Positions 12,362 through 46,085 of a stretch of DNA of 46,085 nucleotides are shown in pieces. Both the position numbers and the translations under genes were made by a program. This stretch comes from a virus: the IMG/VR virus record IMGVR_UViG_3300005546_000008, positions 1 to 46,085 of that record, one strand, 5' to 3'. Numbering within the stretch: the stretch's first letter is position 1; each line of letters begins with the position of its first letter. Below the pieces are notes generated by a model. The model ran no database searches. It worked only from the letters and a program-made list of their open reading frames with translations, and was not told the origin of the DNA.

Positions 12362-12454
12362 CCCCCTCAATATCTTCCCCGTAGCTGACCCCGCTCCACC
12401 CCCTGACGCTTATGATCGTGAAGATGACTCCTACTTCAAGCGAGGATTAAAATT

Positions 12455-13783: not shown

Positions 13784-13791
13784 AGGTGATA

Positions 13792-17462: not shown

Positions 17463-17473
17463 CTGGAGCCACT

Positions 17474-20482: not shown

Positions 20483-21024
20483 GGGTTAGCCTCGAAGAAT
20501 GCTTGAGCAAACTTAGCTGATGTTTCAGATCGCAACCTCTTCGTGCGCTCAGACTTACCCCCAAGTTTCCTCCATCCCCAAAATTCATGCTTACACTTGT
20601 GCCTATTACGAGGTGGCATAGTAAACTTTCCCCATAAGCAAGTGCGTTTGCTCCAATCTTCACCGTACTCACATGGGCTAAAAATGGTAACAGGTGGGCC
20701 AATGAATTTACGTAAACGTCCTACGGGATTTTCTAACGCCCACCAAGCTGGGGAGGCTAATTCAATTACGTCCATACAAGCTACGGCAATATCCACCGCT
20801 TCAGCTAACAACTCAGGGGGCTTAGTGGCCCACCATCTAGCCCCGCTAACTGCAAACTCAGTACAAGGTGGTGCAGCAAGGATACCATGAACATTTGAAG
20901 GGGGAATATAATTTCTGATATCAATTTCGGGGAGAGTAACCAATCTTACATCATACCCTGCCTCTTTATAGGGTCTACTCCACGCTCCCGTCCCCCCACA
21001 CAAGTCTAAGATGATTTTACCCAC
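20479..21024 (-). CDS. Miniature DNA (cytosine-5)-methyltransferase-like protein (181 aa), interposed between the two halves of the DNA polymerase
   Basis: Motif I LDLCGGTGAWS, motif IV ILAAPPCTEFAVSG (PC catalytic dipeptide), motif VI WALENPVG. There is no room for a canonical target-recognition domain. GTG start with an AAGGAG Shine-Dalgarno 7 nt upstream. Confidence 0.6.
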   Translation of the reverse strand: MGKIILDLCGGTGAWSRPYKEAGYDVRLVTLPEIDIRNYIPPSNVHGILAAPPCTEFAVSGARWWATKPPELLAEAVDIAVACMDVIELASPAWWALENPVGRLRKFIGPPVTIFSPCEYGEDWSKRTCLWGKFTMPPRNRHKCKHEFWGWRKLGGKSERTKRLRSETSAKFAQAFFEANP

Positions 21025-22174
21025 CCATCATCTCCTTATGCTTATCGTGCAACCTTCGCGTTTGGATAACGTCCATTGCGCAATAGAGCTTATTCCACTG
21101 CCACTCACTCCATTGTGGGTAAGCAATCTTATAGTATGCTTGCACCCACTTCAACTCCTCCACCCTCTTCCACGGAGCTTGATCCTCAAACTCCCTCAAC
21201 ACACAATTCTGCAACCCCAACCACTTCACCTTCAGCTTTTTCTTTTTCGCACCGTTTTCATCTTCGCCCGCTTCAACTTTGCGGTCTGCGACGGGGGGGT
21301 AAATAGTGGACGCTTGAGTGATTGTATCATGCACTCGTGTGCGTAGGCTGATGTTACCGAGTTGGTTAAGGGAGAATCCTCTATGATCGTAGTAAAAGTT
21401 GTGACCCACGATTTCCCTACCACTCCCTTGTATTCCCCGCTCAATAGCTCTTCTGAGGCTTCCATTGCCCCAATCTGCCACAACGGCTTTGTTAGGTGTG
21501 GGCGCAATACCAACGAGTATAATTTCTCCTTGTCTCCCACGGGGAGTCTCGATATCAATGGAAATAGGTCCACCATCATCTTCGGCGAAGGCTTCTTCAA
21601 TGTCATCCTCCATAGGGTTAAGGTTGATTGTGATACCCCGCAAACGATTATAGTCTGGAACAACTTTTCTTGACGTTTCAGTTTCTCCGGGCAACACTCC
21701 ATAGTATTCTAGCAAATAATTACTGCCCTCATAGTAAACTCCCGGCCCATATTCCCGCTGGCTCCAAGCCGCCGCACGCTGAATAAATCTATAAAGCGTC
21801 GGCAGCATCCATCTTGACCCCTTCATCGCATCAGCGGGATGCAGACTCACCACCACACTATGAACATTGGGGGTGCGATAAAGTATATCCACAACCTTGT
21901 TGGCGTTTGCTATAGCCTCAAACTCCTGCCTATTCCAAACCGCCCCCATCACCTCTGCGGGATTGGTCAGTCCCGATGATATCCTTAACGCATCAGATCC
22001 CAGAAGTAGGAGTGTTTTCGCATTTGAGGTGGGATACTCGGTACATGGCATAACCTCAACTCCCTCCACCCCACCCTCACTCCGCGCTCGATAAGGATCA
22101 ACTCCCAACCCTTTCCAGATATGATAAAAGCTTCCATCTGAGGCTGGAAGGTGGGAGAGGATTAGGAGGCTCAT
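21017..22174 (-). CDS. DNA polymerase N-terminal part: 3'-5' exonuclease domain preceded by a domain of about 190 aa with degenerate uracil-DNA-glycosylase-like features
   Basis: Exo I ISIDIETP, Exo II VGHNFYYDHRGF, Exo III YCAMDVIQT. The N-terminal region has LLLLGSDA and VVSLHPADAM, which resemble degenerate UDG family-4 motifs (GEAPG and HPS). Confidence 0.75.
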   Translation of the reverse strand: MSLLILSHLPASDGSFYHIWKGLGVDPYRARSEGGVEGVEVMPCTEYPTSNAKTLLLLGSDALRISSGLTNPAEVMGAVWNRQEFEAIANANKVVDILYRTPNVHSVVVSLHPADAMKGSRWMLPTLYRFIQRAAAWSQREYGPGVYYEGSNYLLEYYGVLPGETETSRKVVPDYNRLRGITINLNPMEDDIEEAFAEDDGGPISIDIETPRGRQGEIILVGIAPTPNKAVVADWGNGSLRRAIERGIQGSGREIVGHNFYYDHRGFSLNQLGNISLRTRVHDTITQASTIYPPVADRKVEAGEDENGAKKKKLKVKWLGLQNCVLREFEDQAPWKRVEELKWVQAYYKIAYPQWSEWQWNKLYCAMDVIQTRRLHDKHKEMMGG

Positions 22175-22392
22175 TTAACCTTCACCCATCCTGTTACATT
22201 TCGCATTCCATAATCCACCCTAACAAGGAAAGCATCATCCCACACAATATTTTCCTCAGTCAGAAGAGCTCGCAGGTGCGCTTTCCCCTGCCCAATCGAG
22301 CAATAATCGCCAGTAACTTTCATAAAGCCACCTCGCACTCGGATAATACCAATCCAAGCGGGCAACTCTACGTCATCTATTTCCTTTTTCAA
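22171..22392 (-). CDS. Hypothetical protein
   Basis: 73-aa ORF with ATGA-type overlaps to the genes on both sides. Confidence 0.5.
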   Translation of the reverse strand: MKKEIDDVELPAWIGIIRVRGGFMKVTGDYCSIGQGKAHLRALLTEENIVWDDAFLVRVDYGMRNVTGWVKVK

Positions 22393-23294
22393 GAAATCCC
22401 CTCCACCCTATCACAAACTTGTTTGAGACTACAATAGTCGGAGCACTTCTTCTTGTTAAACATACTGCGGCCGATGAGGGGAACTGACTCTTTGACAACT
22501 TCCCCCACATTTACATAAGTACTAGCTCCCCCTAAAAATCCTTGATTAGCTACATAATCATGTTTCAAATTGAGCAGCGCTTCTGCGGCTTTCCCCGCAA
22601 TAAACCCCACAGTGAAATCCCCACCCCCTGGACGATGCGCCGCAATCCTCTCCTCATCCCACACCGGCACCTTGAACCTCTTCATCTCCTTCCCCGCTCC
22701 AGCCATACTACTTCTCACCACTTCCATCTCCACCACCCTCAAGCCGGGTTCCTGCTGCTCCCACAACAACCTTTGCATGTTAACCTGACACGCATGATCA
22801 TCTTTGAGCGTCCACTCTTTGTAACCGTCTTTGTCGAAGGAGTGGAATTTGCCTTCGCAGATTTTGCCTTCCTTAGTATACCCTGCATGCTCCAACCCTG
22901 TTGTAGCATACATCAAGCTAAGATCAATCGCCGCGCTTAAAGGGAGGCCCAGGATTGTCCCCTGAACCTCCCTCTCAGCCACCCACCCTATTGGAGGAAA
23001 CTTTGCAATAGCAGCCTGAACGAGGGTTCCCACTGCGGGGGTATGTTGCGTGCGTGGATCGAACGTGTGGGGAAGGAAGTCCGCAAGCAGCCACTCGCGG
23101 GGGCAGGTTAGGAGGCGCGTAACGGTTATCTTACCATCTCTATGCCTGGTGTCGTTGAGGGCATGATTAAGAAGTGAATGCCACCACGCTCTAGCTTGTG
23201 CGCTCCCCGCACACTCAGGGGCGGTGTCGCTCACCCAATGGGTTAAGTCAGTGGTCTCAATCTTGCAGGCGGGGCAGAAAAGGGCGCTAATCAC
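22389..23294 (-). CDS. PD-(D/E)XK nuclease, Cas4/RecB-like, with a Cys cluster
   Basis: N-terminal CPAC and a C-terminal Cys cluster KKKCSDYCSLKQVC, like the Fe-S cluster of Cas4/AddB-type nucleases. AIDLSL ... CEGKF fits the D...ExK catalytic motif. Confidence 0.55.
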   Translation of the reverse strand: MISALFCPACKIETTDLTHWVSDTAPECAGSAQARAWWHSLLNHALNDTRHRDGKITVTRLLTCPREWLLADFLPHTFDPRTQHTPAVGTLVQAAIAKFPPIGWVAEREVQGTILGLPLSAAIDLSLMYATTGLEHAGYTKEGKICEGKFHSFDKDGYKEWTLKDDHACQVNMQRLLWEQQEPGLRVVEMEVVRSSMAGAGKEMKRFKVPVWDEERIAAHRPGGGDFTVGFIAGKAAEALLNLKHDYVANQGFLGGASTYVNVGEVVKESVPLIGRSMFNKKKCSDYCSLKQVCDRVEGIS

Positions 23295-23791
23295 TAGGGT
23301 AATCCTCCTAGAAAGAACACAATATGACTCCTAGATACGTCAACTTTGCGCCCGTCGGGGGTTAAAAACTTCGCCCTAAAGGGTGGCTTCCAGTCCCCCC
23401 ATTTATTTTTTTCCAACAATCTGTAATACTTTGTGGTGGAATCATTGGGGACAATGATAGCCACAAACGCCCCAAGGGACGCCTCTTTAACAGCTTTCTC
23501 CGCCCAACTATATATATCAGAGTAGGGCATATTCACAAAGCATTTCATCGCTTTCCAACTTTGCAGGAGCCCGTTACCCTCCTTAGTATAGAAATGGGGG
23601 GTGTTTAACCTATTACCCGAAGCAGCGCAAGGATCAAGTTCAAAGTTGAAAAGGCGGTTAAGGGGGACCCATACTTCATCGGGAGTATACCTCTCATCCG
23701 TATCATCATCACTCATCTCAATCATCACTCCTCCCCACTCAGCGTCACCGCGCACCCAATGATGTAGCCGAACATCAATCCAATCATCCAC
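23294..23791 (-). CDS. Phage Dam-family DNA N6-adenine methyltransferase-like protein
   Basis: ERYTPDEVWVPLNRLFNFELDPCA ... LLQSWKAMKCFVNMPYSDIYSWAEKA matches the layout of the phage N6-adenine methyltransferase family (TP...LD...W...NPPY). The catalytic tetrapeptide here is NMPY. Confidence 0.6.
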   Translation of the reverse strand: MDDWIDVRLHHWVRGDAEWGGVMIEMSDDDTDERYTPDEVWVPLNRLFNFELDPCAASGNRLNTPHFYTKEGNGLLQSWKAMKCFVNMPYSDIYSWAEKAVKEASLGAFVAIIVPNDSTTKYYRLLEKNKWGDWKPPFRAKFLTPDGRKVDVSRSHIVFFLGGLP

Positions 23792-23812
23792 CCTAAGAGG
23801 AAGATAGCCAAG

Positions 23813-23998
23813 CTATTCATAATCCACCTCTATCTCATCACGTTTAAAATCCTCAAGCTCAGCATCAAACTCCTCACACTCCTGACACAACCACCCATTC
23901 TCGCTAAGATAACGATGGGGGCCGATGGTGTAGGGACACCGCGCACATTGCATCTCATTATGAGGATCACTCACATTCATGCTCCAACTCCTTCCCAT
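23813..23998 (-). CDS. Small zinc-ribbon protein
   Basis: 61 aa with CARCPYT...(13)...CQEC. Confidence 0.5.
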   Translation of the reverse strand: MGRSWSMNVSDPHNEMQCARCPYTIGPHRYLSENGWLCQECEEFDAELEDFKRDEIEVDYE

Positions 23999-24158
23999 GC
24001 CTCATCCTGCATATTGAGCAACGTAAATGTTCGTGCAAAGCATCGATATTATTGATAACATCACTAACATCATCATATCCAAGGGGGCCATACTTTCTAA
24101 TGTACGCCCAAAGATCCAATCTTACTTTGTCAGCTAGGCTTAAAGGTTTTTCAGTCAT
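23967..24158 (-). CDS. Hypothetical small protein
   Basis: ATG at 24158 (MTEKPLSLADKVRLDLWAYIRKYGPLGYDD...). The track's longest ORF starts at GTG 24164. Confidence 0.45.
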   Translation of the reverse strand: MTEKPLSLADKVRLDLWAYIRKYGPLGYDDVSDVINNIDALHEHLRCSICRMRHGKELEHECE

Positions 24159-24279
24159 CCCCACACCGTGGACAGAGTCTTGGAGCCGCTGAATTCTCCG
24201 AGAAGTAGACAGCCAAGTTGCAGCGCAGGCATTCCCATTGCCAGCAACGGATAGCTTGAATGAATCCGATGAACTTCAT
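24151..24279 (-). CDS. 42-aa zinc-ribbon micro-protein (below the ORF-track cutoff)
   Basis: ATGA overlap with the stop of 24276..24584. Translation MKFIGFIQAIRCWQWECLRCNLAVYFSENSAAPRLCPRCGDD carries two CxxC pairs. Its stop overlaps the next gene's start region. Confidence 0.4.
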   Translation of the reverse strand: MKFIGFIQAIRCWQWECLRCNLAVYFSENSAAPRLCPRCGDD

Positions 24280-24584
24280 CCCCGCACCTTCGCGAGGCAG
24301 TCGCGGCGGAACTCGATGCAACGGGAATCTATATGTGGATGGGGATGATTTTCCACAATGCGTCTACATAGATTCATGTCTTTTTTATCGTGGCTGACGA
24401 AGTGATTAGCATGACACAGGCAATTTCTTGTATGATCCCCCTCCGCCAACCTCTCCAGCGCGGCGAGGGCTTTCTCGTATTCGCACGGCTGTTTATGTTC
24501 CCTGTGATACTCGTAATTCTCGCAGCGTATGATGGCACGCCTCAATTTCTCCGCCACAATCCCGTAATCGTCAGGTCTACTCAT
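24276..24584 (-). CDS. Cys/His-rich hypothetical protein
   Basis: 102-aa ORF with ATGA overlaps at both ends. Confidence 0.5.
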   Translation of the reverse strand: MSRPDDYGIVAEKLRRAIIRCENYEYHREHKQPCEYEKALAALERLAEGDHTRNCLCHANHFVSHDKKDMNLCRRIVENHPHPHIDSRCIEFRRDCLAKVRG

Positions 24585-32273: not shown

Positions 32274-32915
32274 ATGCGCGTCGCCGTCACAGGTTCCACA
32301 GGAAGGTTAGGGAAGGAGATTCACAAACTCCGTCCTAATTTCGTCGCTTTGGGCCACGATGTAACCTCATTTTGGGGTATAAGCGGCGGATTCGACACCT
32401 TGATCCACCTTGCAGCGATGACCCACGTTCCAACGTGCGAGCGCGAACGCGACCTAGCGTGGAAAGTGAACGTGGTGGGTACTGCCAATGCGGTCGAGTG
32501 GTGTCTCCGCACAGGCTGCAAGATGGTGTACATGAGTTCCTCATATGCAGTGAATCCGGTGAATTGGTATGGACGGACGAAGAGGTGTGGGGAGATAATT
32601 GCATCTCATGCCGCTGGAGGCCTTATCGTTCGCAGCCAGTTCAAAGAACGCCCCTACCCCTACAATATAGCCCCCACCGACGCATACGCCAGGGCAATGT
32701 ACGCGGATGAGGTTGCAAATGAGTTGGTTAAGCTCGTTGAGGGAGAAACTTCGGGAATTGTTGGTATTTGGGGAAAGCGACGAAGTTTGTTTGACTTCGC
32801 CCGAGAATCAAGAAGTGACGTTAAACCCTGCCTTCGACGAGATCTACCCCATACTATCCCAGCCGATGCTTCTCCAGAAGCCAGTTCACAAGGATCATCG
32901 CGGGTGGGTGTATGA
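32274..32915 (+). CDS. rmlD: Short-chain dehydrogenase/reductase resembling dTDP-4-dehydrorhamnose reductase (RmlD-like), unusually short at 213 aa
   Basis: MRVAVTGSTGRLGKEI is a Rossmann GxxGxxG motif. IHLAAMTHV, MSSSYAV and the catalytic YGRTK (YxxxK) are present. LIVRSQF matches the RmlD IxRTSW segment. Confidence 0.55.
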   Translation: MRVAVTGSTGRLGKEIHKLRPNFVALGHDVTSFWGISGGFDTLIHLAAMTHVPTCERERDLAWKVNVVGTANAVEWCLRTGCKMVYMSSSYAVNPVNWYGRTKRCGEIIASHAAGGLIVRSQFKERPYPYNIAPTDAYARAMYADEVANELVKLVEGETSGIVGIWGKRRSLFDFARESRSDVKPCLRRDLPHTIPADASPEASSQGSSRVGV

Positions 32916-33213
32916 GGCGTGGCGAGGTTCTAATGGGTTCCAGTGTAAACAGGTTACCCTCGTTGGATGTGAGCGAGGAATCTGGAAGGGGGCGCATTAT
33001 CACCCCACTAAAAACTCCCTCTGGGCGTGCGTTGCTGGACGCGTGCTTGCACGAGTCGGAGAAGCCATCATACCTCTCAAAGCTGGAGATGGAGTACTTG
33101 TGTATATACCGGCGACTATTGCCCACGATATCATGGGACTTGAGCGAAGAAACGTCATCGTGGAACTAGATAGCGCTGAGTTCGTGGAAGGGGATAAGGT
33201 GAGGGTAGTATGA
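32815..33213 (+). CDS. rmlC: Cupin resembling dTDP-4-dehydrorhamnose 3,5-epimerase (RmlC-like), short. Start uncertain.
   Basis: LLQKPVHKDHRGWVYEAW matches the RmlC segment with the conserved D-x-RG-x-F. GIWKGAHYH matches G-x-hydrophobic-RG-hydrophobic-H-x-Q. Candidate starts are GTG 32815, ATG 32866 or the track's 32707. All overlap the RmlD-like gene. Confidence 0.5.
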   Translation: MTLNPAFDEIYPILSQPMLLQKPVHKDHRGWVYEAWRGSNGFQCKQVTLVGCERGIWKGAHYHPTKNSLWACVAGRVLARVGEAIIPLKAGDGVLVYIPATIAHDIMGLERRNVIVELDSAEFVEGDKVRVV

Positions 33214-33302
33214 TTATTCTACTAGTTATACCTGTTGGTATATTTTTATATTGGTTACTGGATCGGGAAGGATTAGCTGGTGGTCATTATGATGATTTCT
33301 AA
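33210..33302 (+). CDS. 30-aa hydrophobic micro-ORF in an AT-rich spacer (tentative)
   Basis: ATGA overlap with the RmlC-like stop, and its TAA abuts the rmlB ATG. Translation: MIILLVIPVGIFLYWLLDREGLAGGHYDDF. Confidence 0.25.
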   Translation: MIILLVIPVGIFLYWLLDREGLAGGHYDDF

Positions 33303-34289
33303 ATGAGAATCCTAGTAACGGGGGGATTTGGGTTCATCGCCTCCGAGTTGGTACGCCAACTTGTTGAGAAGGGTGATACTATTGCCGTTGTGGACCCCAT
33401 CACCTACGCAGCCTCTATGGATAACTTAGCTGATGTAGAGGGAAAATTCGAGCATTACATATGCGGGGTTGAAGATCCCGATATTCACTCTCTCCTCGCC
33501 CACTTCAAGCCTGAGATTATCTACCACGCTGCGGCTGAGAGCCACGTTGATAGGAGCCTCAACTCCTACAAAGCCTTCGTAGACACCAACATCACCGGCA
33601 CCTTCAACCTCATTGAGGCAGTGAGGGTGCATGCACCAACATGTAAGTTTGTGTATGTGAGCACGGATGAGGTGTATGGCTCCTTACCCGAGGGGCGCGC
33701 CACTGAGGGTTCACCCCTCAACCCCACTAATCCCTACAGCGTAAGCAAAAGTGCCGCTGAACATACGGTTAGGGCCGCCGCGCATACCTGGGGACTCAAT
33801 TTTGTAATCACAAGGAGCTGCAACAACTATGGCCCACGGCAACATCCCGAGAAGCTCATCCCTCATGCTATCACCAAACTCCTCAGTGGAGAAGCAATCC
33901 ACCTCCATGGTGACGGGGGGAACATCAGAGAGTGGGTATATGTGGCGGACAACGTCCGAGGGATTATTGCGGCCGCGGATAGTGGTGTATTGGGAGAAAC
34001 CTACAACGTCACTACAGCGATTGCTCAGACGAATAAGGAGATTGTTTACCTCCTCGCTAACAAGTTAGGTGTCATCCCCAACATCGAATACGTCCCTGAT
34101 CGCCCCGGCAACGACCTCCGCTACGCTATGACTTCCGCCAAACTTCGCCTCCTTGGCTGGAAGCCTGAAGAAACTCTCGATAGTGGTATTGATAAGACAA
34201 TCGCGTGGTACGAAAAAAGCAAGATGTGGTGGAGCAGCAAATCGACGCCGCTCTCCAAGCCCAGCGGGTCCAAAAGCTCCAACAGCTAA
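33303..34289 (+). CDS. rmlB: dTDP-glucose 4,6-dehydratase (RmlB)
   Basis: MRILVTGGFGFIASELV (GxxGxxG), YHAAAESHVDRS, VSTDEVYG, the catalytic YSVSKSAAE (YxxxK) and SCNNYGPRQHPEKLIP are all hallmark RmlB segments, present in order. Confidence 0.85.
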   Translation: MRILVTGGFGFIASELVRQLVEKGDTIAVVDPITYAASMDNLADVEGKFEHYICGVEDPDIHSLLAHFKPEIIYHAAAESHVDRSLNSYKAFVDTNITGTFNLIEAVRVHAPTCKFVYVSTDEVYGSLPEGRATEGSPLNPTNPYSVSKSAAEHTVRAAAHTWGLNFVITRSCNNYGPRQHPEKLIPHAITKLLSGEAIHLHGDGGNIREWVYVADNVRGIIAAADSGVLGETYNVTTAIAQTNKEIVYLLANKLGVIPNIEYVPDRPGNDLRYAMTSAKLRLLGWKPEETLDSGIDKTIAWYEKSKMWWSSKSTPLSKPSGSKSSNS

Positions 34290-38318: not shown

Positions 38319-39191
38319 ATGTCGCAGGTAGTTAGTTTTAGTCCGGTTATGAAAGATGGGCAGCTTGATCTAGGGCATGGGGATTTGGATGGTACTAACG
38401 TTGAGGGTGTGGGGCAGCAGACTACACCGGGGAATACTAACTTTGATGATGGTTCTAACGTGGCGCAGTTGAGTAGTCAGGTTAATCCGTGGGAGGTTCC
38501 CACGAATGAGCCTGTTACAGCCCCACAGGTTGTGCAGGCGCAGCCTCAGTCTAATCCCCTTGCAGATGAGATTGCCCACCTCAAAAAGATTGTGGGCGAC
38601 CAGGGTAACCAAATTGGGGAATATAGGAAGCTGCTTAATACCCTCGCTTCCCAAACTCAGCCTCAGCAGCAGCATATGGGGTTTGCGCCTCAGCAGGCTG
38701 CTCAGCGCATCATCAACACCCCCAATCCCGATGACTATCCCACCGCCCGCCAGATTGAGGAAGGTGTTATGCGAGTGGGGCAAGTCTTGTATGAATCCCT
38801 CCAATCCCAGCTTCAGGAGACGGCTGCTAAGGCCCAACTTGCTGCTGCTGGTATCACCCCCGAGGAGCAGCAACTCCTCGAACTCCAGTACCCCGGCCTC
38901 CGCACCATGGACGCCAATACTCGCGCAGGCGTGGTTAGCGCACTCGCGAAGAGTAAGCGTCTTGAAACGCAGGCCTTCACAGCCGCCAATACCCAAGCTA
39001 CTGCTCAGGTAGCCGCGCAGGGCGTCAGGCAGCGTGTCTTTGTAGAACAGCCTCAAGCGTACACCAACGTACCCTCAGCCGGTCAAACCGTCGATATGGA
39101 CGCCTTTGGTAAGCTCAACTCCAAACAAATGGAGGAAGCTCTCAAAAAGATGGGCGTCCCTAGAGTGGATGATTGGAACCGGCGAGGATAA
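38319..39191 (+). CDS. Scaffolding protein
   Basis: It lies between portal and capsid genes. Gln/Ala-rich helical sequence. The ATG at 38319 follows a GGGAG Shine-Dalgarno (alternative ATG 38307). Confidence 0.55.
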   Translation: MSQVVSFSPVMKDGQLDLGHGDLDGTNVEGVGQQTTPGNTNFDDGSNVAQLSSQVNPWEVPTNEPVTAPQVVQAQPQSNPLADEIAHLKKIVGDQGNQIGEYRKLLNTLASQTQPQQQHMGFAPQQAAQRIINTPNPDDYPTARQIEEGVMRVGQVLYESLQSQLQETAAKAQLAAAGITPEEQQLLELQYPGLRTMDANTRAGVVSALAKSKRLETQAFTAANTQATAQVAAQGVRQRVFVEQPQAYTNVPSAGQTVDMDAFGKLNSKQMEEALKKMGVPRVDDWNRRG

Positions 39192-39205
39192 AGGATAGCT
39201 AAGTA

Positions 39206-40174
39206 ATGGCTTCTCCAACAATTACCTCAATTGCGAGATTGGTACCCACGTACTATGATCGCCTTCTTTTGGACAACCTCTACCCCGACCTCTACCTTTG
39301 GCAGTTCGGGGAGAAGCGCAAGGTTCCGCCCAACAGTGGTAAGACTATTCTGTTCAACAAGTGGACTAAGCTGACGCTTGGTAACTTCGTTACAGAAGGT
39401 ACTCCGATTGGAACTTGCGCCATGTCAGCGTCGCTCGTGTCCACGACTCTCTCCGGCTTCGCGCTCGCCGTGAAGCACTCCGACTTCCTCGTCATGACCG
39501 CCATCAGCGACGTGATCGCGGGGTCAGTACAGGAAGTCTCGAAGAGCCTCGCCCTCAAGATCGACTCGCGCATCCGCCAGGTCATCAGTGGACTCGGCAC
39601 GCAGATCACCGCCTGCGTGGTTAGCGTGGCGGGTTCCGCTGTCGTGGGTAAGCTGAAGAATGGAGACCGCCTCAAGGCTCGCGAGGTTGTTCGTTCGCTG
39701 CGTACCCTCAACGTCAACAACGCCAAGACCTTCCCAGACGGATTCTTCGGGATGGTGCTGCACCCCTATCAGTTGTGGGATATCCAGGGGGATACCTCAA
39801 CGGGTGGTTGGATCGACATCAACAAGTACGCCTCCAACGACACGGTGCAGAATTTGTATCGTGGAGAGGTTGGACAACTCTATGGATTCAGGGTTGTGCG
39901 TAGCACCAACGTTAAGGCCGGTCTCGCCGCTTCTCCCGCTTCCGCCGCCAACTCCGCCTACATGGGCTTCGCTATGGGTCCGGGCGCATATGGAGTTGTG
40001 GAGCTTGATGAGGGTAGCGCGAGAGTGTTCGTGAAGCAGCTTGGTTCCTCCGGTACGGCTGACCCTGTTAACCAGCTTGCCACTGTGGGAGCTAAGATCT
40101 ACTTCAGCGCCGTTAACCTCGATTGCACGAACCGCCTCGTTACCATCAGTTCGGGCAAGTCCACCGCGTTGTAA
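39206..40174 (+). CDS. Major capsid protein (HK97 fold)
   Basis: 322 aa. LYPDLYLWQFGEKRKVPPNSGKTILFNKWTKL and GFALAVKHSDFLVMTA fit the conserved N-terminal layout of podovirus major capsid proteins. It follows the scaffold gene. Confidence 0.75.
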   Translation: MASPTITSIARLVPTYYDRLLLDNLYPDLYLWQFGEKRKVPPNSGKTILFNKWTKLTLGNFVTEGTPIGTCAMSASLVSTTLSGFALAVKHSDFLVMTAISDVIAGSVQEVSKSLALKIDSRIRQVISGLGTQITACVVSVAGSAVVGKLKNGDRLKAREVVRSLRTLNVNNAKTFPDGFFGMVLHPYQLWDIQGDTSTGGWIDINKYASNDTVQNLYRGEVGQLYGFRVVRSTNVKAGLAASPASAANSAYMGFAMGPGAYGVVELDEGSARVFVKQLGSSGTADPVNQLATVGAKIYFSAVNLDCTNRLVTISSGKSTAL

Positions 40175-40185
40175 GGGAGGCTTTC

Positions 40186-40473
40186 ATGGCTGATCAGTTT
40201 GCCAGCAAGCCCGGTAAGGATCAAGGTTTCGACCCCCGCAACAACCAAGCTCAGACTGTCCCCGCTGGGAGAATTGGACAGGAGTATCCTTCAATCCCCC
40301 CTGACGCCGATCTCGCTGTGTGGGACGATGAGTACAATTACGACCCCAGCATTGCACGTAAAGTGCCACGCAATGGGGTGGAATGCACCGCCCACGCACT
40401 CTTCCACTCTAAGGGAGTGAGTGTGGATAATGATCAAAACACTAAGTATGTTTACAAGCCAGGAAAGGGATAG
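40186..40473 (+). CDS. Hypothetical protein (capsid-associated by position)
   Basis: ATG at 40186 with an AGGGAGG Shine-Dalgarno. 95 aa. Confidence 0.5.
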   Translation: MADQFASKPGKDQGFDPRNNQAQTVPAGRIGQEYPSIPPDADLAVWDDEYNYDPSIARKVPRNGVECTAHALFHSKGVSVDNDQNTKYVYKPGKG

Positions 40474-40475
40474 TT

Positions 40476-40685
40476 ATGAGTGAGAATCCTGCACAGAACG
40501 CTGCTTCCGGCCCGCCCAATGTTGGCCCGCGTATTGGGGGCACCTCCCCCAACCACGTTGGTCCCTCGGGGATGGGAACTGAGGGTGGCGCTATTGGAGT
40601 TATCACGGCGATGAATGTTGATGCGGAGAGTTTCCCCGTTAACATGCGTACCGTGAATGAGCCCGAGGGTGAGTTTCTGAAGTAG
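40476..40685 (+). CDS. Hypothetical Gly/Pro-rich small protein
   Basis: 69-aa ORF with a purine-rich GGAAAGGGA Shine-Dalgarno-like stretch upstream. Confidence 0.45.
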   Translation: MSENPAQNAASGPPNVGPRIGGTSPNHVGPSGMGTEGGAIGVITAMNVDAESFPVNMRTVNEPEGEFLK

Positions 40686-40704
40686 TCCCGACAGGACGAG
40701 TTAG

Positions 40705-40727
40705 GGGGGATCTCGCCAAAATCCCCC
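40705..40727 (+). terminator. GC-rich hairpin after the capsid gene block (candidate partial terminator)
   Basis: GGGGGAT (40705-40711), loop ctcgccaaa, ATCCCCC (40721-40727), followed by acccctttc. It sits in one of the few intergenic gaps (40686-40746). Confidence 0.4.
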
Positions 40728-40746
40728 ACCCCTTTCAAGGAGAGTT

Positions 40747-41124
40747 GTGGCTAGCGGGTTCCACGGAAGTATGCCAGCAGAGGTGTTTAAGGGGCTTATT
40801 GAGCGCGCTAACCCCACCGATAAGGCCCTCAAGTTTGAGGTGTCGCGCATGAATGGATACCGCAACGCGGGGTTGTATCGCGATGATCAATACATCATGG
40901 GCGTGACGCGCAACGAATTCCCTGAATACACCGTGAGAAGCGCGGATGACGGGATTGAAGCGTTAGGGTGGAGGGAAGCACTAACCTCTCTTCTCCTTGA
41001 AGGGTATATCAAGGTAACCCCCGAGATTGTAACATGGTTGGGGATGGATGGAGTGGCGTACGCACTCTCGCCGCGTGGGGGGGAGTGGATTCCTAACGAG
41101 AAAGAGAGTATAATTATAAAATGA
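40747..41124 (+). CDS. Hypothetical protein
   Basis: GTG start 2 nt after an AAGGAGAG Shine-Dalgarno. 125 aa. ATGA overlap with the first glycosyltransferase gene. Confidence 0.5.
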   Translation: MASGFHGSMPAEVFKGLIERANPTDKALKFEVSRMNGYRNAGLYRDDQYIMGVTRNEFPEYTVRSADDGIEALGWREALTSLLLEGYIKVTPEIVTWLGMDGVAYALSPRGGEWIPNEKESIIIK

Positions 41125-41891
41125 GCTACCCCACTATAAGCTGTATCATCTCCACCTATAACCGAGCTAACTTCCTCCGCCGCGCCCTTGCAAGCGTTCT
41201 CGCTCAAGATATCAAAGAGGAGATTGAATGTGTGGTTGTGGATGATGCATCTACAGATTCAACCTTCGATGTGGTGAAGAGTTTCGATAAGGCGTTCACC
41301 CTCAAGGGAATACCCCTCCTATTTTACAAGTTGGGCGAGAATAGCGGCTATCAGTGCAAGCCTAAGAATGTGGGGGTGCAGCATTGCAATGGGGAGTTTA
41401 TCGCCTATCTTGATGATGACAACGTATGGAAGCCTAACCACCTCCGCGAACTCTTCACCGCCATCATAGAGAAAGAAGTGGATATGGTGTATGGGATGAG
41501 GGAGTATAAGGCTATGGAGGGGTATGATCCTATCCACCTGGGAAAGAAGCTCTCCCTCGGTCCCTCTCCCATATTCCCCTTTGAGGTGGAGCGGCTTGAG
41601 CAAGGTAACTTCATCGACACCAGCGATATCATGCACACGAAGGGCGCCTATTACCTCCTCGCTTCCAAAACTGAGTGTGGCTGGGATGAGGAGATGCGCC
41701 GCTTCGCAGACTGGAACTTCGTCTATCGCTGGGCTAAGGTGGGATTAAGCGCCGCACCCGTCTATAGGATACTTACCGAGTATTGGTGGCATGGACAAAA
41801 CTTGCAGCTTACTCGCCCCGTTATGGAGCAGCCCCTTGCTGTAGGGAGGTTTGACCTTGAAAATAGCGGTCTACACACTAACGCGGGATAG
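41121..41891 (+). CDS. Family 2 glycosyltransferase (GT-A fold)
   Basis: ISCIISTYNRANFLRRALASVLAQ, ECVVVDDASTDST and FIAYLDDDNVW (DxD) are the canonical GT2 N-terminal motifs. Confidence 0.8.
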   Translation: MSYPTISCIISTYNRANFLRRALASVLAQDIKEEIECVVVDDASTDSTFDVVKSFDKAFTLKGIPLLFYKLGENSGYQCKPKNVGVQHCNGEFIAYLDDDNVWKPNHLRELFTAIIEKEVDMVYGMREYKAMEGYDPIHLGKKLSLGPSPIFPFEVERLEQGNFIDTSDIMHTKGAYYLLASKTECGWDEEMRRFADWNFVYRWAKVGLSAAPVYRILTEYWWHGQNLQLTRPVMEQPLAVGRFDLENSGLHTNAG

Positions 41892-42534
41892 GCTGCACGA
41901 TACTCAGCGAACCTTCGCACTCCTTAAAGAGATGGCGGGGATGGAATATGACCACTACGTTATGGATAACGGAAGTGTGGACGGAACTAACAAGTGGCTC
42001 GCAGGGCAGGGGCTCCACTACCTCAACCTCTCCCTTGACAATAAAGGCCAGTGTATAAGCTCCAACATGCTCATTGATGCTATCCTAAACAGTGGCATCA
42101 GCTATGACTACATTGTTAGGTTGGATAACGACATTACCCCCAAGACTGACAACTTCTTGGCCCGCTCCATCGAAGCGCAGCAGGAACTCGGAAAAGGGTG
42201 TGTATTGTCACCTGATATCATCGGTCTCAATCATAAGCCTAAGTCCTTTGGGAACCACGCTACTGTCCACTTTAAGTATGATTTCGTGGAAGCTCTAGGT
42301 GGTGCGTGTAGAGTCACTCTTCCCAGCGTGTGGGATAGTTTTCGTTTCTCCATCCACGGCCCCCTAGCCTTGGGGGAAGCTCAACAGATTAGTGTGTATT
42401 GCCACGCCGAAAACCTCCCCATGGTATACGTTAAGGATATCGTAATCGAGCACATCACCGACAACCACTTCCGCGACAACCCCGAATACTTCAGGCGCCG
42501 CAGGATGGAGGAGTTTGTTCCTTATGGACTCTAA
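41857..42534 (+). CDS. GT-A-type glycosyltransferase-like protein
   Basis: TTG at 41857 lies 7 nt after GGGAGG (MKIAVYTLTRDRL). The protein has HYVMDNGSVDGT and YIVRLDNDI (DxD-like). It overlaps the upstream GT2 gene by 35 nt. Confidence 0.55.
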   Translation: MKIAVYTLTRDRLHDTQRTFALLKEMAGMEYDHYVMDNGSVDGTNKWLAGQGLHYLNLSLDNKGQCISSNMLIDAILNSGISYDYIVRLDNDITPKTDNFLARSIEAQQELGKGCVLSPDIIGLNHKPKSFGNHATVHFKYDFVEALGGACRVTLPSVWDSFRFSIHGPLALGEAQQISVYCHAENLPMVYVKDIVIEHITDNHFRDNPEYFRRRRMEEFVPYGL

Positions 42535-43090
42535 GCCCAAGGTAATAATGGACTTCGACGACCTCTGCGACACTTACGATCCCTTCAATATGCTATGCAC
42601 CCTGAAAGAAAACGACCCCGAGTTTAAGGTTACACTCTTCACCATCCCCAAGCGCTGCAGCAAAACTCTCCTCAAGAAGTATGCTAAAGAGAAGGATTGG
42701 ATTGAGCTTGCTATGCACGGATGGTGGCACACATACGGGGAGACGCTAAGCTGGACAAAGGAGGAGGCACTAGACAAGATGCGTATCTCCTTCGATATGG
42801 GCATCGACGGCAAAGGATTCAAAGCCGCCAAGTGGGTCATCGACCCTGTGGTGTACGAAGCCGCTAAGGAGCTAGGTTGGTATGTGGCTGACCATAAAAC
42901 TAATCGTTACCGTATTCCTACTGAGGGTGAGAGGATATATATCAGTGATCTTAGGTTAAGGGATGGTAAGGAGCGCCGCCTCCACGGCCACACCCGTAAC
43001 GTCTGCGACAATGGCATTGAGGAGGCTTTCCCCCTCTTCATGCTCCCAAGGGGGAAGTTTGAATACCGCTTCATATCAGAAGTGTGTTAA
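42524..43090 (+). CDS. Polysaccharide deacetylase-like protein (DUF2334/NodB-like)
   Basis: VIMDFDDL...FKVTLFTIP...ELAMHGWWH fits the DD...TLF-x-IP...E-hydrophobic-x-x-HG-x-x-H layout of DUF2334-type predicted deacetylases. The track's longest ORF starts at TTG 42515. Confidence 0.4.
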   Translation: MDSKPKVIMDFDDLCDTYDPFNMLCTLKENDPEFKVTLFTIPKRCSKTLLKKYAKEKDWIELAMHGWWHTYGETLSWTKEEALDKMRISFDMGIDGKGFKAAKWVIDPVVYEAAKELGWYVADHKTNRYRIPTEGERIYISDLRLRDGKERRLHGHTRNVCDNGIEEAFPLFMLPRGKFEYRFISEVC

Positions 43091-43688
43091 GGATGATACT
43101 TACTACACCAAAGTTCAAGCCGAGCACAACGACGTAAGCGGCTTCTGGGTGAACCGCGCTCTCTACGCAGCTAAGAACTTCCTTGAGGTGGTGGGAGCTA
43201 ACCTGTTTGATGATGACACCGTTGCGGACTTTGGCTCGCGCACAGGGTATGTTGCAGACATGCTCAAGCGTATAACCTCCCTCAACCCTATCTGTGTGGA
43301 TATTAGCGCCGAACATATCAAGGTGTGTGAGAGTAAAGGTTTCCCCGCCTTCGCGGGTAGGATTGAGAATATGAGCTTTTTGCGGGATGGTGAGGTGGAT
43401 TGGGGATTTTGTTCGCACACGCTGGAGCATGTTAAGGATTACGACGCAGCGGTGAAGGAGCTTAATAGGGTGGTGAAGCGTGGGTTGTTTATCGTCATCC
43501 CAATGGAGCACGAAGATGCGGGGGATGCTAACCCCTCCCACATGCGCTTCTCTACCAACATCCACGACTACATCACCCCCTTCGAGGCGCTGGGGTGGAA
43601 GATGGGGTGGGAGTGTCCGCCTATCCCTAACGCTGAAGATTACGACCCCGAGAGCAGAAGCGACTACCAAGTTTGGTTGTACCGATGA
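43059..43688 (+). CDS. Class I SAM-dependent methyltransferase. Start uncertain.
   Basis: VADFGSRTGYVADML is motif I. VDWGFCSHTLEHVKDYDAAVKELNRVVKRGLFIV matches the Methyltransf_11-type motifs. There is no ATG or GTG between 43011 and 43150. The TTG at 43059 follows AAGGGGGA. The track ORF starts at 42963. Confidence 0.7.
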   Translation: MNTASYQKCVKDDTYYTKVQAEHNDVSGFWVNRALYAAKNFLEVVGANLFDDDTVADFGSRTGYVADMLKRITSLNPICVDISAEHIKVCESKGFPAFAGRIENMSFLRDGEVDWGFCSHTLEHVKDYDAAVKELNRVVKRGLFIVIPMEHEDAGDANPSHMRFSTNIHDYITPFEALGWKMGWECPPIPNAEDYDPESRSDYQVWLYR

Positions 43689-44824
43689 AAATACTCCAGC
43701 TTACTCACCAGAATATCCCCATCAACTACTACCGCCACTGGCAGTTTGCTAAGCACCTCAACGACATGGGCCACACTATCCTCACCCGCCCACACTCGTC
43801 ACTGTCCCCTTTTGGCTACAAGGACACCATCAACTACAAAGGTGTGAAGCGGGATTATTGTTTGGACTATGACTTCCTCGACGCTATTGCTCCAGGATGT
43901 GATGCGATATGGAGCACAATCTGTTATGAGCCTCACCGCCTCGCCACCCTCATGGCCGCACGTGAAGCTTATGGCATTCCCATCATCATCGACACTGATG
44001 ATTTGGTTACTGATATCCCCAAGTACAACGTCGCCCAGCAGAAGCTCACCTCCAAGAGTGACCGCATCAAGATTGCTCTAGCCGGATTCAGGCACGCAGA
44101 CGCCCTAACCACAACCTGTGCCTTTCTAGCTGAGGCGCTTAAGAAATATAACTCTAACGTGTTTATCACCGAGAATAACATCGAGCCCTCAACCTGGACA
44201 ATGGAGCGTAAGCCCACCCCCGCTAATGAAGTTAGAATCCTATGGGCAGGCTCAACCGCCCGCTATGGCGACATTCAGATGATCCGCCGCCCCCTCGAAA
44301 GCATCATCAAGCGCTACAAAGGAAGCAGCATCTGCGTTAAGCTAATCTTCATCGCCACTGTTCCTGACTTCGCTGTGGAGTGGATTGATGCAGGAGACGC
44401 ATTTGTGTTGCAGTGGGCGGACATGATTGATTACCAAGCTGTGACGCGCTACATCGCGCCCGACATTGGCTTAAGTCCCCTTGTTCCCAGCGACTTCAAC
44501 CGCTCTAAGAGTCCCCTCAAATACTTCGACTACACCATGATGGGGGCAGCGGGGGTATATAGCGATGAGTGTACCTACTCTTGCGTGGAGGATGGAGTCA
44601 CCGGCATCAAGCTAAAGGGCGACGCTGGGTGGGAAAGCGCCCTCATCAAACTCATCGAAAACCCCATCCTCCGCAAAGACATAATCCACGCCTCCTCTAA
44701 AGATGTGCTCGCCAATTACTCCATCCTGAAGAACGCTCCCCGCATCGCCTCCACACTGGAAGAAGCCGTCCATGTCGGAAGTTCTCATTGCGCCTCAGTC
44801 CGTTACCGGGCCAACGCCAGCTAG
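43685..44824 (+). CDS. GT-B-fold glycosyltransferase (GT1/GT4-like)
   Basis: The ATG at 43685 forms an ATGA overlap with the methyltransferase stop (MKILQLTHQNIP...). ILWAGSTARYGD opens the C-terminal Rossmann half. SPLKYFDYTMMGAAGVYSD...VEDGVTG fits the nucleotide-sugar-binding region. Confidence 0.6.
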   Translation: MKILQLTHQNIPINYYRHWQFAKHLNDMGHTILTRPHSSLSPFGYKDTINYKGVKRDYCLDYDFLDAIAPGCDAIWSTICYEPHRLATLMAAREAYGIPIIIDTDDLVTDIPKYNVAQQKLTSKSDRIKIALAGFRHADALTTTCAFLAEALKKYNSNVFITENNIEPSTWTMERKPTPANEVRILWAGSTARYGDIQMIRRPLESIIKRYKGSSICVKLIFIATVPDFAVEWIDAGDAFVLQWADMIDYQAVTRYIAPDIGLSPLVPSDFNRSKSPLKYFDYTMMGAAGVYSDECTYSCVEDGVTGIKLKGDAGWESALIKLIENPILRKDIIHASSKDVLANYSILKNAPRIASTLEEAVHVGSSHCASVRYRANAS

Positions 44825-45488
44825 ATTTGCAGACCTTAAAGATCAAGTAGCCCTCATCCTTGGCCGCCAACTAGACTCTCAGTCTCTCTATCGCTGCGGG
44901 CAGTTTATCAACCGCGTGATTAAGGAGCTTAATACCCGCCCGTGGAAAGCTCTTCTCACCGTGGGCTCCAACATCACCACCTCCACTGGTACCCGCACCT
45001 ACTCCCTAGACTCCCTCTTCTTCAAAGAGAGTAAGGTGCAGCGGCTTGATGACTCCTCCAAGCCCGCCTTCACCCTGCAATACCTAGACTGGGAACAGTA
45101 TCAAGCCCGCTACGACAGGCAGACTGATAGCGGCGCACCTTACATGTATACGCTCCGCAATGTAGATCAAGATGGGGTTATCGACTTCTACCCCGTCCCT
45201 GACCAAGCTTACACCATCACCGTCCAGTATTACGCCCGCATCCCCCAGCTTGTTAACAATGACGACACCCTCCTCATCCCTATTGAGTTTGAAAACTACA
45301 TTATCCTGAAGGCACAGTTTTACCTTCTTGATCTCTTCCACCACGAACGCTCAGCGGAGAAGTTTAAGTACTGCGAAAATGAAATGGCGAAGCTCATTAG
45401 GGTGGACGAAATCCACCCCGACGATACCCCCCGCTTCCGCCTCCCTATGCCAAAATCTACGTTCGGCACTATCTACATAAAGGTTTAA
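44772..45488 (+). CDS. Tail tubular protein A / adaptor-like structural protein (T7 gp11-like)
   Basis: It lies between the capsid block and the tailspike and nozzle genes. FINRVIKELNTRPWKALLTV...TYSL resembles the gp11 segment ILNKINRQIQSRGWTFN...ITLLP. 238 aa. Confidence 0.45.
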   Translation: MSEVLIAPQSVTGPTPARFADLKDQVALILGRQLDSQSLYRCGQFINRVIKELNTRPWKALLTVGSNITTSTGTRTYSLDSLFFKESKVQRLDDSSKPAFTLQYLDWEQYQARYDRQTDSGAPYMYTLRNVDQDGVIDFYPVPDQAYTITVQYYARIPQLVNNDDTLLIPIEFENYIILKAQFYLLDLFHHERSAEKFKYCENEMAKLIRVDEIHPDDTPRFRLPMPKSTFGTIYIKV

Positions 45489-45489
45489 G

Positions 45490-46085
45490 ATGGCGCAGCT
45501 TGGTAGACTTTATAAGTACATGCTCCGCAGCAACGGCAATGCTGTTAGCGGAGTATCGCTTACAGTGTATCGTGAGGGGGCGACAGTCAATGGGGCGCAG
45601 AGTGGAATCTCCCCTCTTAACGTAACTGTGCGGCATGTGGGGAAGATCCAAACAGGAGACTTTGTATTCACTGGCACCACTCCCTCCACCACCTTCTCCG
45701 CCACCGTAACTTCCACCACCTTAATCACCCTAAGCGGCTTCAGCGGAACCCTATCCCTTGCAGATGGAGACCGCCTCACCCCTACAGGTTCCAAGCCCAC
45801 CCTCTATGCTGACGATCAAGGTGGCACCTCCACCACCAACCCTCTCACCTCATCCTCAACAGGATTGTGTCAGTGTTGGGTTGAGTTTGGGGGTTACGAC
45901 CTCTTGCAGAGTGGTGGCGGCCTAAGCACCCTCATGCACACCAGCCAAGTAGTAGGGAGTGAAGCTCCGGGGCAGATTAGGTTTGCGGATGATTTTGCGG
46001 CGCTCTCAGTCTCGGGGGGAATCCAAGAAGCTATAGATGATCTCCCCTCTGCTGGAGGTAAGGTTCTTTGCTCAGCGGGGCGAAC
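45490..46085 (+). CDS. Tailspike / tail fibre, 5' part. It continues across the circular junction into 81..1896 (46006..46085 duplicates 1..80).
   Basis: The ATG at 45490 is 2 nt after the upstream TAA. The frame stays open to the end of the window and is in phase with frame 1 at base 1. Ser/Thr-rich N-terminal domain (TGTTPSTTFSATVTSTTLITLSGFSGTLS). Confidence 0.8.
   Translation, partial: MAQLGRLYKYMLRSNGNAVSGVSLTVYREGATVNGAQSGISPLNVTVRHVGKIQTGDFVFTGTTPSTTFSATVTSTTLITLSGFSGTLSLADGDRLTPTGSKPTLYADDQGGTSTTNPLTSSSTGLCQCWVEFGGYDLLQSGGGLSTLMHTSQVVGSEAPGQIRFADDFAALSVSGGIQEAIDDLPSAGGKVLCSAGR
46006..46085. repeat. Terminal direct repeat copy B (identical to 1..80)
   Basis: Exact 80/80 match to the first 80 bases of the window. 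Confidence 0.95.

Follow-up and report, generated by a model that had tools for sequence, protein, structure and literature searches.

What does a phage make with five predicted glycan enzymes encoded between its capsid gene and its head-to-tail adaptor gene? The question is raised by the IMG/VR virus record IMGVR_UViG_3300005546_000008, which was analyzed over its full length of 46,085 nucleotides (hereafter the window). An initial annotation had described, at positions 41121-44824, five overlapping and co-oriented genes for a GT2 glycosyltransferase, a second GT-A-like transferase, a DUF2334/NodB-like deacetylase candidate, a class I S-adenosylmethionine (SAM) methyltransferase and a GT-B glycosyltransferase, and had taken them for an insertion into the late operon of a T7-type phage. 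All five enzyme assignments stand, including that of the deacetylase, as judged from Pfam, PHROG, profile searches and structure models; the insertion and the T7-type setting do not. The best explanation places the module, as a fixed element, among the head-morphogenesis genes of one clade of uncultured podophages recovered in environmental samples, at least one of which was forest soil. The gene neighbourhood, its sole basis, makes glycosylation of the virion the best reading. We give about even chances to the view that a virion protein is glycosylated late in infection and in the cytoplasm, the major capsid protein being the foremost candidate acceptor.

Layout of the cassette and its predicted enzymes

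The five genes (g1 to g5), with starts refined from gene calls on the same public contig, and their immediate neighbours are arranged as follows:

39206-40174, + strand: major capsid protein (phrog_1357, 1.7e-37), leading candidate acceptor
40186-41124, + strand: three small conserved open reading frames (ORFs) of 95, 69 and 125 aa, the last overlapping g1 by 4 nt
41121-41891, + strand: g1, GT2 glycosyltransferase, 256 aa
41857-42534, + strand: g2, predicted GT2-like GT-A glycosyltransferase, 225 aa
42524-43090, + strand: g3, predicted CE4/NodB-fold deacetylase, 188 aa
43059-43688, + strand: g4, class I SAM methyltransferase, 209 aa
43685-44824, + strand: g5, predicted GT-B glycosyltransferase, 379 aa
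44772-45488, + strand: head-to-tail adaptor (Pfam SU10_adaptor, 5.6e-19)

The + strand ORFs at 41121-44824 agree with the five overlapping genes first described, and the flanks are as described too, with the capsid gene and small ORFs reaching to 41124 and the adaptor starting at 44772. Overlaps of 4 to 53 nt occur at every junction from the last small upstream ORF (s3) to the adaptor, with 32 nt shared by g3 and g4 and 53 nt by g5 and the adaptor. A longer ATG ORF of g4, from 42963, is probably not the true start. The gene arrangement bears out that the cassette is co-oriented and overlapping with virion genes. Promoter-like and terminator-like sites were not in excess between 31000 and 46085 (eight of each, against 12.2 and 13.6 expected), and two weak ones lie within g2, promoter-like at 42205-42234 and terminator-like at 42321-42335. 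The maximum 19-residue hydropathy of the cassette proteins ranges from 0.51 to 1.68, giving no typical membrane helix in g1 to g5, and no flippase, polymerase or exporter gene was found on the contig in the precomputed Pfam tables for the called genes.

The first enzyme, g1, is a GT2 glycosyltransferase (GT-A) that matches Pfam PF00535 (Glycos_transf_2) at 4.5e-27 and 95.5 bits, against a cut-off of 23.3. It carries a DDD motif within YLDDDN, and its maximum 19-residue hydropathy of 1.01 indicates a soluble protein. It also matched PHROG families labelled "GtrB-like O-antigen conversion" (about 1e-11) and, weakly, NodC (3e-7, score 29.8 against a cut-off of 550). Profiles and structure models were needed to place g2, g3 and g5; single-sequence phmmer searches of these three proteins against the PDB gave nothing meaningful. 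Taken alone, g2 stays below the PF00535 cut-off (1.8e-3, 18.7 bits against 23.3); the domain is present in eight g2 homologues (28-62% identity). The motifs D39-N-G-S-x-D44 (DNGSxDGT), N64-x-G66 and D92-N-D94 (DxD) are invariant in 17 sequences, and the g2 profile matched chondroitin synthase 2z86 in the PDB (4.4e-4). These sequence features make g2 a predicted divergent GT2-like GT-A glycosyltransferase.

The last gene, g5, matched phrog_7162 (6.5e-28). It had no Pfam match, PF00534 and PF13692 included, while its distant homologues do match, and its profile matches GT4 chains in the PDB. Its AlphaFold model has a predicted local distance difference test (pLDDT) value of 90.5. In Foldseek, this model superposed on GT4 enzymes with E-values of 1e-15 to 1e-13 and template modelling (TM) scores of 0.6-0.7; these include BshA (4.7e-15, TM 0.69), PimA, MshA and PglA. 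It also superposed on a methylmannose-polysaccharide mannosyltransferase and, at TM 0.83, on glycosyltransferases of uncultured phages. At the EX7E motif, g5 has KYFDY against the consensus LEY, the first Glu being replaced by Asp. On the modelled fold, g5 is a predicted GT-B glycosyltransferase of the GT4 type.

The deacetylase assignment of g3 follows the same pattern. Alone, the protein stays under threshold for Polysacc_deac_1 (4e-3); its profile matched the CE4 domain of 7ax7 (1.3e-4). The AlphaFold model, built with a 37-sequence alignment, reached a pLDDT of 95, and Foldseek returned 27 PDB matches with E <= 1e-3, nearly all of them CE4 deacetylases or esterases, although remote (best E 6e-7, TM 0.5-0.6). 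Foldseek comparison of AlphaFold models, run for g3 and g5, supported the predicted folds. H68, H72 and H159 are invariant in the alignment, and D15, D16 and H157 occur in at least 90% of the 37 sequences. By our own reading, these residues fit NodB motifs 1 (Asp-Asp), 2 (HxxxH) and 5 (catalytic His). The arginine of motif 3 (RxPY) is absent, the corresponding stretch being FKAPxW with no conserved Arg. Because this arginine is missing and some members match PF10096, the family is atypical for CE4 and nearer to DUF2334. We therefore describe g3 as a predicted CE4/NodB-fold, DUF2334-like metal-dependent deacetylase. The neighbouring g4 is a class I SAM methyltransferase (Methyltransf_11, 9.4e-13, 49.1 bits against a cut-off of 21.2).

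Domain fusions tie these activities together. In an exhaustive profile search, the g3 family, clustered at 50%, comprised 753 representatives; 197 had E <= 1e-30. The top 147 representatives were surveyed for fusions; 46 of them are at least 300 aa long. Our own hidden Markov models (HMMs) detected a CE4-methyltransferase fusion in at least 21 of these 46 long proteins. Among ten multidomain members tested against Pfam, nine carry methyltransferase domains (Methyltransf_11/25/31, FkbM, TylF, Methyltransf_24), and three of the ten have GT2 in the same chain (two GT2-methyltransferase-CE4, one GT2-methyltransferase-CE4-methyltransferase); the tenth member is a GT1 fusion. The single chains that join GT2, SAM methyltransferase and DUF2334/CE4 domains are P0137 (1048 aa), which bears a second methyltransferase, P0157 (858 aa) and P0190 (893 aa). 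Because of these fusions, the deacetylase, the methyltransferase and the GT2 enzyme would work on one glycan, and the domain combinations suggest a deacetylate-then-methylate step. In the simplest order, a sugar bearing an acetyl group would be transferred first, then lose that group, and lastly be methylated at the freed position. A degenerate FKVTLFTIP pattern gave six matches in species-representative bacterial genomes, none of them a cassette protein, a weak negative from one peptide pattern; neither a host nor a prophage emerged.

Conservation in the capsid clade and linkage to other capsids

Homologue look-ups with g5 and g3 returned contigs L002 (forest soil), L003 and L006, all from other samples. 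They share the gene order capsid, small ORFs, GT2, GT-A, an optional extra methyltransferase, CE4, methyltransferase, GT-B and adaptor, so that the search of metagenomic phage genomes for the same synteny recovered it in all three. Protein identities to the window, for L002, L003 and L006 respectively, are:

Portal: 72%, 71% and 41%
Capsid: 65%, 66% and 38%
g1: 56%, 56% and 38%
g2: 52%, 54% and 29%
g3: 63%, 67% and 48%
g5: 48%, 46% and 31%
Adaptor: 63%, 68% and 26%

The divergence of the cassette tracks that of the portal and capsid in these relatives. Five adjacent, translationally coupled glycan genes that keep 46-67% identity in L002 and L003 are not explicable by chance. An IMG/VR scan seeded on capsid motifs alone then gave 17 loci with 37-99% capsid identity, and the cassette, or its first genes at a contig end, was present in 16 of the 16 capsid relatives that have sequence downstream of the capsid. 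The three small ORFs between capsid and cassette, which had no family match in Pfam and PHROG scans, are also found in L002, L003, L008 and L075. Outside the clade, Bacillus phage Page (about 25% capsid identity) passes from the capsid through three small ORFs to the tail genes, with no cassette. In one locus (L081, 9001-17770), the cassette begins about 7 kb downstream of the capsid and not at about 1 kb, with extra genes inserted between.

Because it is present clade-wide and diverges together with the portal and capsid genes, the cassette is not a recent or sporadic insertion. These sequence comparisons make it an old, fixed feature of the capsid clade, and the insertion into the late operon that had been proposed finds no support. 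The composition of the cassette (GC 0.50-0.53, GC at third codon positions 0.62-0.66) is close to that of the neighbouring genes, which fits this conclusion but is weak evidence on its own.

The T7-type module, also proposed, is not supported by the genome as a whole. The window ends in an identical 80-bp direct repeat (positions 1-80 and 46006-46085) and therefore represents a whole, circularly assembled phage genome of about 46.0 kb; the same contig is present in ENA assemblies ERZ27264500 and ERZ27265208. A block of + strand genes runs from about 31.0 kb across the circular junction to about 18 kb and contains a possible small terminase, sugar-nucleotide genes, the large terminase, portal, scaffold, capsid, cassette, adaptor, tailspike and further tail genes. 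The - strand carries, at about 19-30 kb, the genes for replication (DNA polymerase A, a Dam-like methylase, AAA ATPases). None of the called genes matches a single-subunit RNA polymerase, an integrase or a thymidylate-synthase homologue in the precomputed Pfam tables. No repressor was identified on the contig and no tRNA gene was found in the window. The absence of integrase and repressor, as first noted, is supported, and a Gtr-type membrane component is absent as well.

Two SU10 families, PF23899 and PF24175, account for the portal and adaptor. The capsid is a member of phrog_1357, its closest isolate capsids being those of Bacillus phage Page and Paenibacillus phage API480 (25-27% identity). 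Lacking the single-subunit RNA polymerase, with an SU10-type portal and adaptor and a capsid nearest to Page and API480, the phage is by its predicted genes a novel podophage-like virus and not T7-like. The expectation that tail tubular protein A directly follows the capsid is consequently inapplicable. A T7-like (Autographiviridae-type) context was rejected, an RNA-polymerase domain being present on no called gene. A blastn search of 39000-46085 against GenBank phages gave no match.

This genome organization also bears on phage DNA as the target. In such a case, the glycosyltransferases would build hypermodified bases guarding against restriction, which we regard as highly improbable here. 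PMC13326640 and Pyle et al. 2024 (via PMC12619734) do describe phage GT-A and GT-B enzymes that glycosylate hydroxymethyl- or hydroxy-pyrimidines of DNA, in some cases adding more than one sugar and drawing on nucleotide sugars that the phage makes. However, the known systems need a thymidylate-synthase homologue that makes 5-hydroxymethyl- or 5-hydroxy-pyrimidines (PMC13326640), and a thymidylate-synthase-like domain occurs on no called gene in the precomputed Pfam tables. The cassette is, moreover, part of the head module and stands apart from the replication genes on the opposite strand. The lack of this homologue and the separation from the replication module make DNA glycosylation unlikely; a CE4 deacetylase is also not part of the systems described in PMC13326640.

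The association with capsid genes extends beyond this clade. A scan of viral contigs with g5 alone found no relatives, while alignment-seeded scans succeeded: an IMG/VR scan seeded on the g3 alignment alone gave 59 loci, which were then scanned with HMMs built from the window's clade. In these loci, g3 is nearly always found beside g2-like and g1-like GT2 genes, methyltransferases and GT-B genes. We searched for capsid genes in 63 sequences, comprising IMG/VR loci, four Logan/ENA loci and the window itself, using PHROG searches and jackhmmer with six seeds. A same-strand major capsid gene lies within 8 kb of g3 in 44 of the 63 sequences, and the linked capsids belong to five families (phrog_1357, phrog_371, phrog_267, phrog_10 and Pfam SU10_MCP). 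Some of the sequences with no nearby capsid gene are short contigs. A larger arrangement is seen in L036 (IMGVR_UViG_3300036859_000189, 2559-18021), a 55-kb phage contig in which glycan genes fill about 15 kb downstream of the capsid. They encode at least eight glycosyltransferases, two methyltransferases, a CE4 enzyme, a CapD/PseB-like dehydratase and an RmlB-like short-chain dehydrogenase/reductase (SDR). A similar layout is suggested in L033, L037, L038, L043, L046, L051, L058 and L060. With 59 IMG/VR loci, further Logan/ENA contigs and one GenBank record, such a cassette is not the rarity it was first thought to be.

Candidate acceptors and alternative roles

If the cassette builds a glycan, the phage may also supply part of the substrate. 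A gene trio for a dTDP-6-deoxyhexose, overlooked in the initial annotation, lies at 32274-34289, just upstream of the large terminase and in the same co-oriented block:

32274-32915, + strand: short SDR, RmlD-like putative 4-ketoreductase, 213 aa (TIGR01214 rmlD 5.4e-17, far under the cut-off; Pfam RmlD_sub_bind/Epimerase precomputed)
32866-33213, + strand: candidate small cupin, RmlC- or FdtA-like epimerase/isomerase, 115 aa (faint precomputed PF00908; no NCBIfam match)
33303-34289, + strand: RmlB-like dTDP-glucose 4,6-dehydratase (NCBIfam TIGR01181 7e-102, 340.8 bits against a cut-off of 365)

The RmlD alignment of the SDR is confined to its N-terminal 120 residues, and the gene overlaps the candidate cupin ORF by 50 nt. 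The cupin assignment is weak; we take the sequence HKDHRGWVYEAW...GAHYH to resemble cupin motifs. The dehydratase is kept at the same position in L003, and related SDR genes are located within the cassette in other lineages. On these predicted functions, host dTDP-glucose is probably turned by the phage's own enzymes into a dTDP-6-deoxyhexose donor.

Two further genes were noted. A GNAT acetyltransferase gene lies among the tail genes at 6687-7181 (+ strand; PF13302/PF00583), with weak likeness to PseH and to spermidine acetyltransferase. It is conserved in L003 (18436-18939), and a related gene adjoins the cassette in L059; its target could be a sugar or a virion protein. Also beside the cassette in L059, a 781-aa ORF (11763-14108) matches an aminotransferase family in two stretches (phrog_3139, 1.5e-44) as well as a LAGLIDADG homing endonuclease, and looks like an intein-type or endonuclease insertion in a sugar aminotransferase gene.

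The enzyme folds and motifs, the absence of membrane segments, the gene overlaps, the clade-wide presence, the capsid linkage and the CE4-methyltransferase fusions are computed features; which molecule accepts the glycan, which sugars it holds and how the steps follow one another we infer as set out below. Since all enzymes are predicted to be soluble and no export gene is present, the glycan would have to be built on a cytoplasmic acceptor. The timing deduced from the gene arrangement, the clade-wide fixation, the co-divergence with virion genes and the repeated linkage to unrelated capsid genes argue for a virion protein, most simply the capsid, as this acceptor. The gene trio, with its RmlB-like dehydratase, candidate cupin and short reductase, would convert host dTDP-glucose to the deoxyhexose donor. 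One soluble glycosyltransferase (g1, g2 or g5) would prime a residue on a newly made structural protein, and the remaining two would lengthen the chain. The predicted deacetylase g3 would strip an acetyl group off a sugar and g4 would then methylate the freed amine or hydroxyl, in the order in which NodB and then NodS act in Nod-factor synthesis.

Several points weigh against virion glycosylation. The link from the enzymes to a virion protein is drawn from predicted genes, and adjacency to the capsid may merely reflect a slot of high late expression. Mycobacteriophage glycans are located on C-termini, and comparison with Page revealed no shared Ser/Thr-rich C-terminal tail or cassette-specific insert in the capsids of cassette-bearing phages. 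The Ser/Thr-rich N-terminus of the tailspike (residues about 60-125) had been named as a candidate acceptor; this stretch recurs in L003 but is absent in L002 and L006, and is a weak candidate because it is not conserved across the relatives. By tblastn, run with g3 and g5, no mycobacteriophage was among the organisms reported for g5 and g3 had no match. The best named matches of g1 are TuaG, EpsD, PglI and WcaA, enzymes of undecaprenyl-linked glycans; these say little on its acceptor, because the donor-binding half alone aligns. Lastly, three of the loci with no nearby capsid gene were checked, and their cassette adjoins tail-fibre genes (L039 and L062) or an exonuclease gene (L020).

Some of these points favour the main rival, in which the cassette would remodel an envelope polysaccharide of the host. 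Lipid-linked precursors of O-antigen, capsule or teichoic acid would be modified in the cytoplasm by the soluble enzymes, and the host would export the product, so that export genes would be dispensable. Such a change would alter the receptor late in infection, with the result, for instance, that progeny do not stick to debris or that other phages are excluded. The resemblance of g1 to GT2 enzymes of undecaprenyl-linked intermediates is consistent with this scenario, as is the position near tail-fibre genes in some lineages, a frequent site of conversion genes. The tail genes speak to it as well, the largest proteins of the contig being beta-helix fibres:

45490-46085, then 81-1896 across the circular junction, + strand: tailspike, 803 aa in the joined translation (Beta_helix and weak Phage_depo_C, precomputed)
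14892-17462: second large beta-helix protein, 856 aa

Two large beta-helix spikes, one of them with a weak depolymerase-type match (Phage_depo_C), suggest that the host receptor is a surface polysaccharide. Elsewhere in the tail-gene block are an M23 peptidase and a metallophosphoesterase (10363-10911 and 11636-12361), and a beta-propeller (SBBP) protein is encoded at 12455-13783. PHROG scans for lysis genes recognized the M23 peptidase only, and no holin, endolysin or spanin.

We nevertheless consider envelope remodelling unlikely. Known conversion modules generally belong to temperate phages, lie near the integrase or in accessory regions, and include GtrA/GtrB/GtrC membrane proteins or acetyltransferases, whereas this phage has no integrase match and its cassette no membrane protein. 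With Gtr-type conversion the cassette shares phage-encoded GT2 enzymes. GtrB, however, is anchored by membrane helices at its C-terminus and acts together with the flippase GtrA and the membrane protein GtrC, and the cassette has neither such helices nor GtrA or GtrC. Gtr-type O-antigen conversion was accordingly rejected, with no membrane-helix segment in g1 to g5 and no integrase match on the contig. Expression late in a lytic cycle would also leave scant time for envelope turnover. Fixation across the clade, co-divergence with head genes and linkage to five capsid families would be unexpected for host-specific conversion genes.

A further alternative is that the genes form an auxiliary set in a highly expressed late slot, acting on a host protein, a soluble metabolite or an oligosaccharide. 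Among the best structural matches of g5 are BshA and MshA; both glycosylate small molecules, and the following step of their pathways is carried out by a deacetylase. The set of GT2, NodB-like and SAM methyltransferase enzymes also mirrors NodC, NodB and NodS, the makers of a free oligosaccharide. The three work one after another on a single glycan, NodC as the GT2 enzyme, NodB as the deacetylase and NodS as the class I SAM methyltransferase, which methylates the amine that NodB frees. The CE4-methyltransferase fusions support the same coupling in the cassette family. The Nod-factor product, however, is a secreted lipo-oligosaccharide, and the cassette has no NodA-like acyltransferase. The deacetylase is of the CE4 type, against the LmbE type of BshB and MshB, and three to more than eight glycosyltransferases per phage imply that the glycan is polymeric or oligomeric, which speaks against a thiol cofactor. 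Strict retention in the head block of every informative capsid relative would be hard to explain, and we rate such an auxiliary role as rather improbable. A glycan built on a virion protein remains the reading we prefer.

Relation to known glycan systems

The closest functional precedent is found in mycobacteriophages. Four papers (PMC11600133, PMC12363180, PMC11256854 and PMC12619734, citing Freeman et al. 2023) report that Che8, Corndog and Myrna use enzymes of their own to glycosylate subunits of the capsid and the tail tube, and that cluster O mycobacteriophages carry an O-methyltransferase followed by three tandem glycosyltransferases. Cluster O thus has one methyltransferase and three glycosyltransferases, a core count equal to that of the window cassette. 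Phage-encoded enzymes and the absence of export machinery are common to both, and the phage's own particle is the target there and the proposed target here. PMC11256854 places the Che8 genes near the 3' end of the genome, in contrast to the capsid-adaptor interval used here. The papers cited describe neither a CE4 deacetylase nor dTDP-sugar genes in the mycobacteriophage systems, whereas both are predicted in the window. The mycobacteriophage hosts are actinobacteria. The capsid of the window lacks a Ser/Thr-rich C-terminal tail. Glycosylation has been demonstrated experimentally in mycobacteriophages and is predicted from genes in the window.

Chlorovirus PBCV-1 offers a second parallel, in which the virus provides glycosyltransferases that work in the cytoplasm, together with a sugar methyltransferase and the enzymes for 6-deoxyhexose nucleotide sugars. 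Its A064R protein joins two glycosyltransferase domains to a methyltransferase domain, and the virus also encodes GDP-sugar enzymes. The multidomain glycosyltransferase-methyltransferase chains P0157, P0190 and P0137 recall A064R. PBCV-1 differs in that it is a giant virus of eukaryotes, its glycans are N-linked and its sugar pathway is based on GDP-sugars.

One variant of the cassette is present in GenBank. MW202801.1 (Podoviridae sp. ctQWt234, Manatee Spring metagenome, 40 kb), our locus L067, carries it at 19272-24303. After the capsid, its co-oriented genes are annotated as an Fe-S oxidoreductase, a glycosyltransferase, a PhyH dioxygenase, a methyltransferase, a "nodB-like protein" and a glycosyltransferase. 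The capsid is 29% identical to that of the window, and the last glycosyltransferase is 23% identical to g5 over its full length. A tblastn search with g3 against GenBank phages gave no match, not even this nodB-like gene. Unlike the window, MW202801.1 lacks the second GT2 and has the additional Fe-S oxidoreductase and PhyH-type (phytanoyl-CoA) dioxygenase annotations, which hint that the glycan may also be tailored by oxidation. Beyond these annotations, we found no paper in the literature that discusses the cassette of this record.

Phage virion glycosylation and virus-encoded glycan machinery are already known in kind. New here are the enzyme set, in particular the CE4-methyltransferase pair, its fixed position in the head module, its breadth over capsid lineages and, by the searches with g3 and g5, its lack of sequence relatedness to known systems. 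No description of capsid-adjacent phage clusters joining glycosyltransferases, CE4 enzymes and methyltransferases was found in the literature. In the papers found, proven phage virion glycosylation is confined to a few actinobacteriophages, and each of these papers cites one 2023 study. The present analysis adds dozens of contigs from uncultured phages in which a conserved set of enzymes is linked to the capsid gene; the set is fixed in one capsid clade and also present beside capsid genes of four other families.

We tentatively propose, as a possibility somewhat short of even, that capsid-linked glycan cassettes mark a large unrecognized class of environmental phages. It would span at least five unrelated capsid lineages, with particles bearing complex phage-specified glycans, some of them from phages with eight or more glycosyltransferases. 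A tailoring step typical of viruses would be the hand-over of a freed amine or hydroxyl from a DUF2334/CE4 deacetylase to a methyltransferase that is fused to it or adjacent. If so, virion glycosylation would be common in phages and not a peculiarity of actinobacteriophages, and capsid-adjacent glycan genes would provide a simple genomic marker for glycosylated phages. The CE4-methyltransferase pair would represent a new glycan-tailoring tool. The surfaces of soil and water phages would be chemically more varied than has been assumed, which would matter for how phages adsorb, how stable they are and how they are recognized by host defences and, in therapy, by the immune system.

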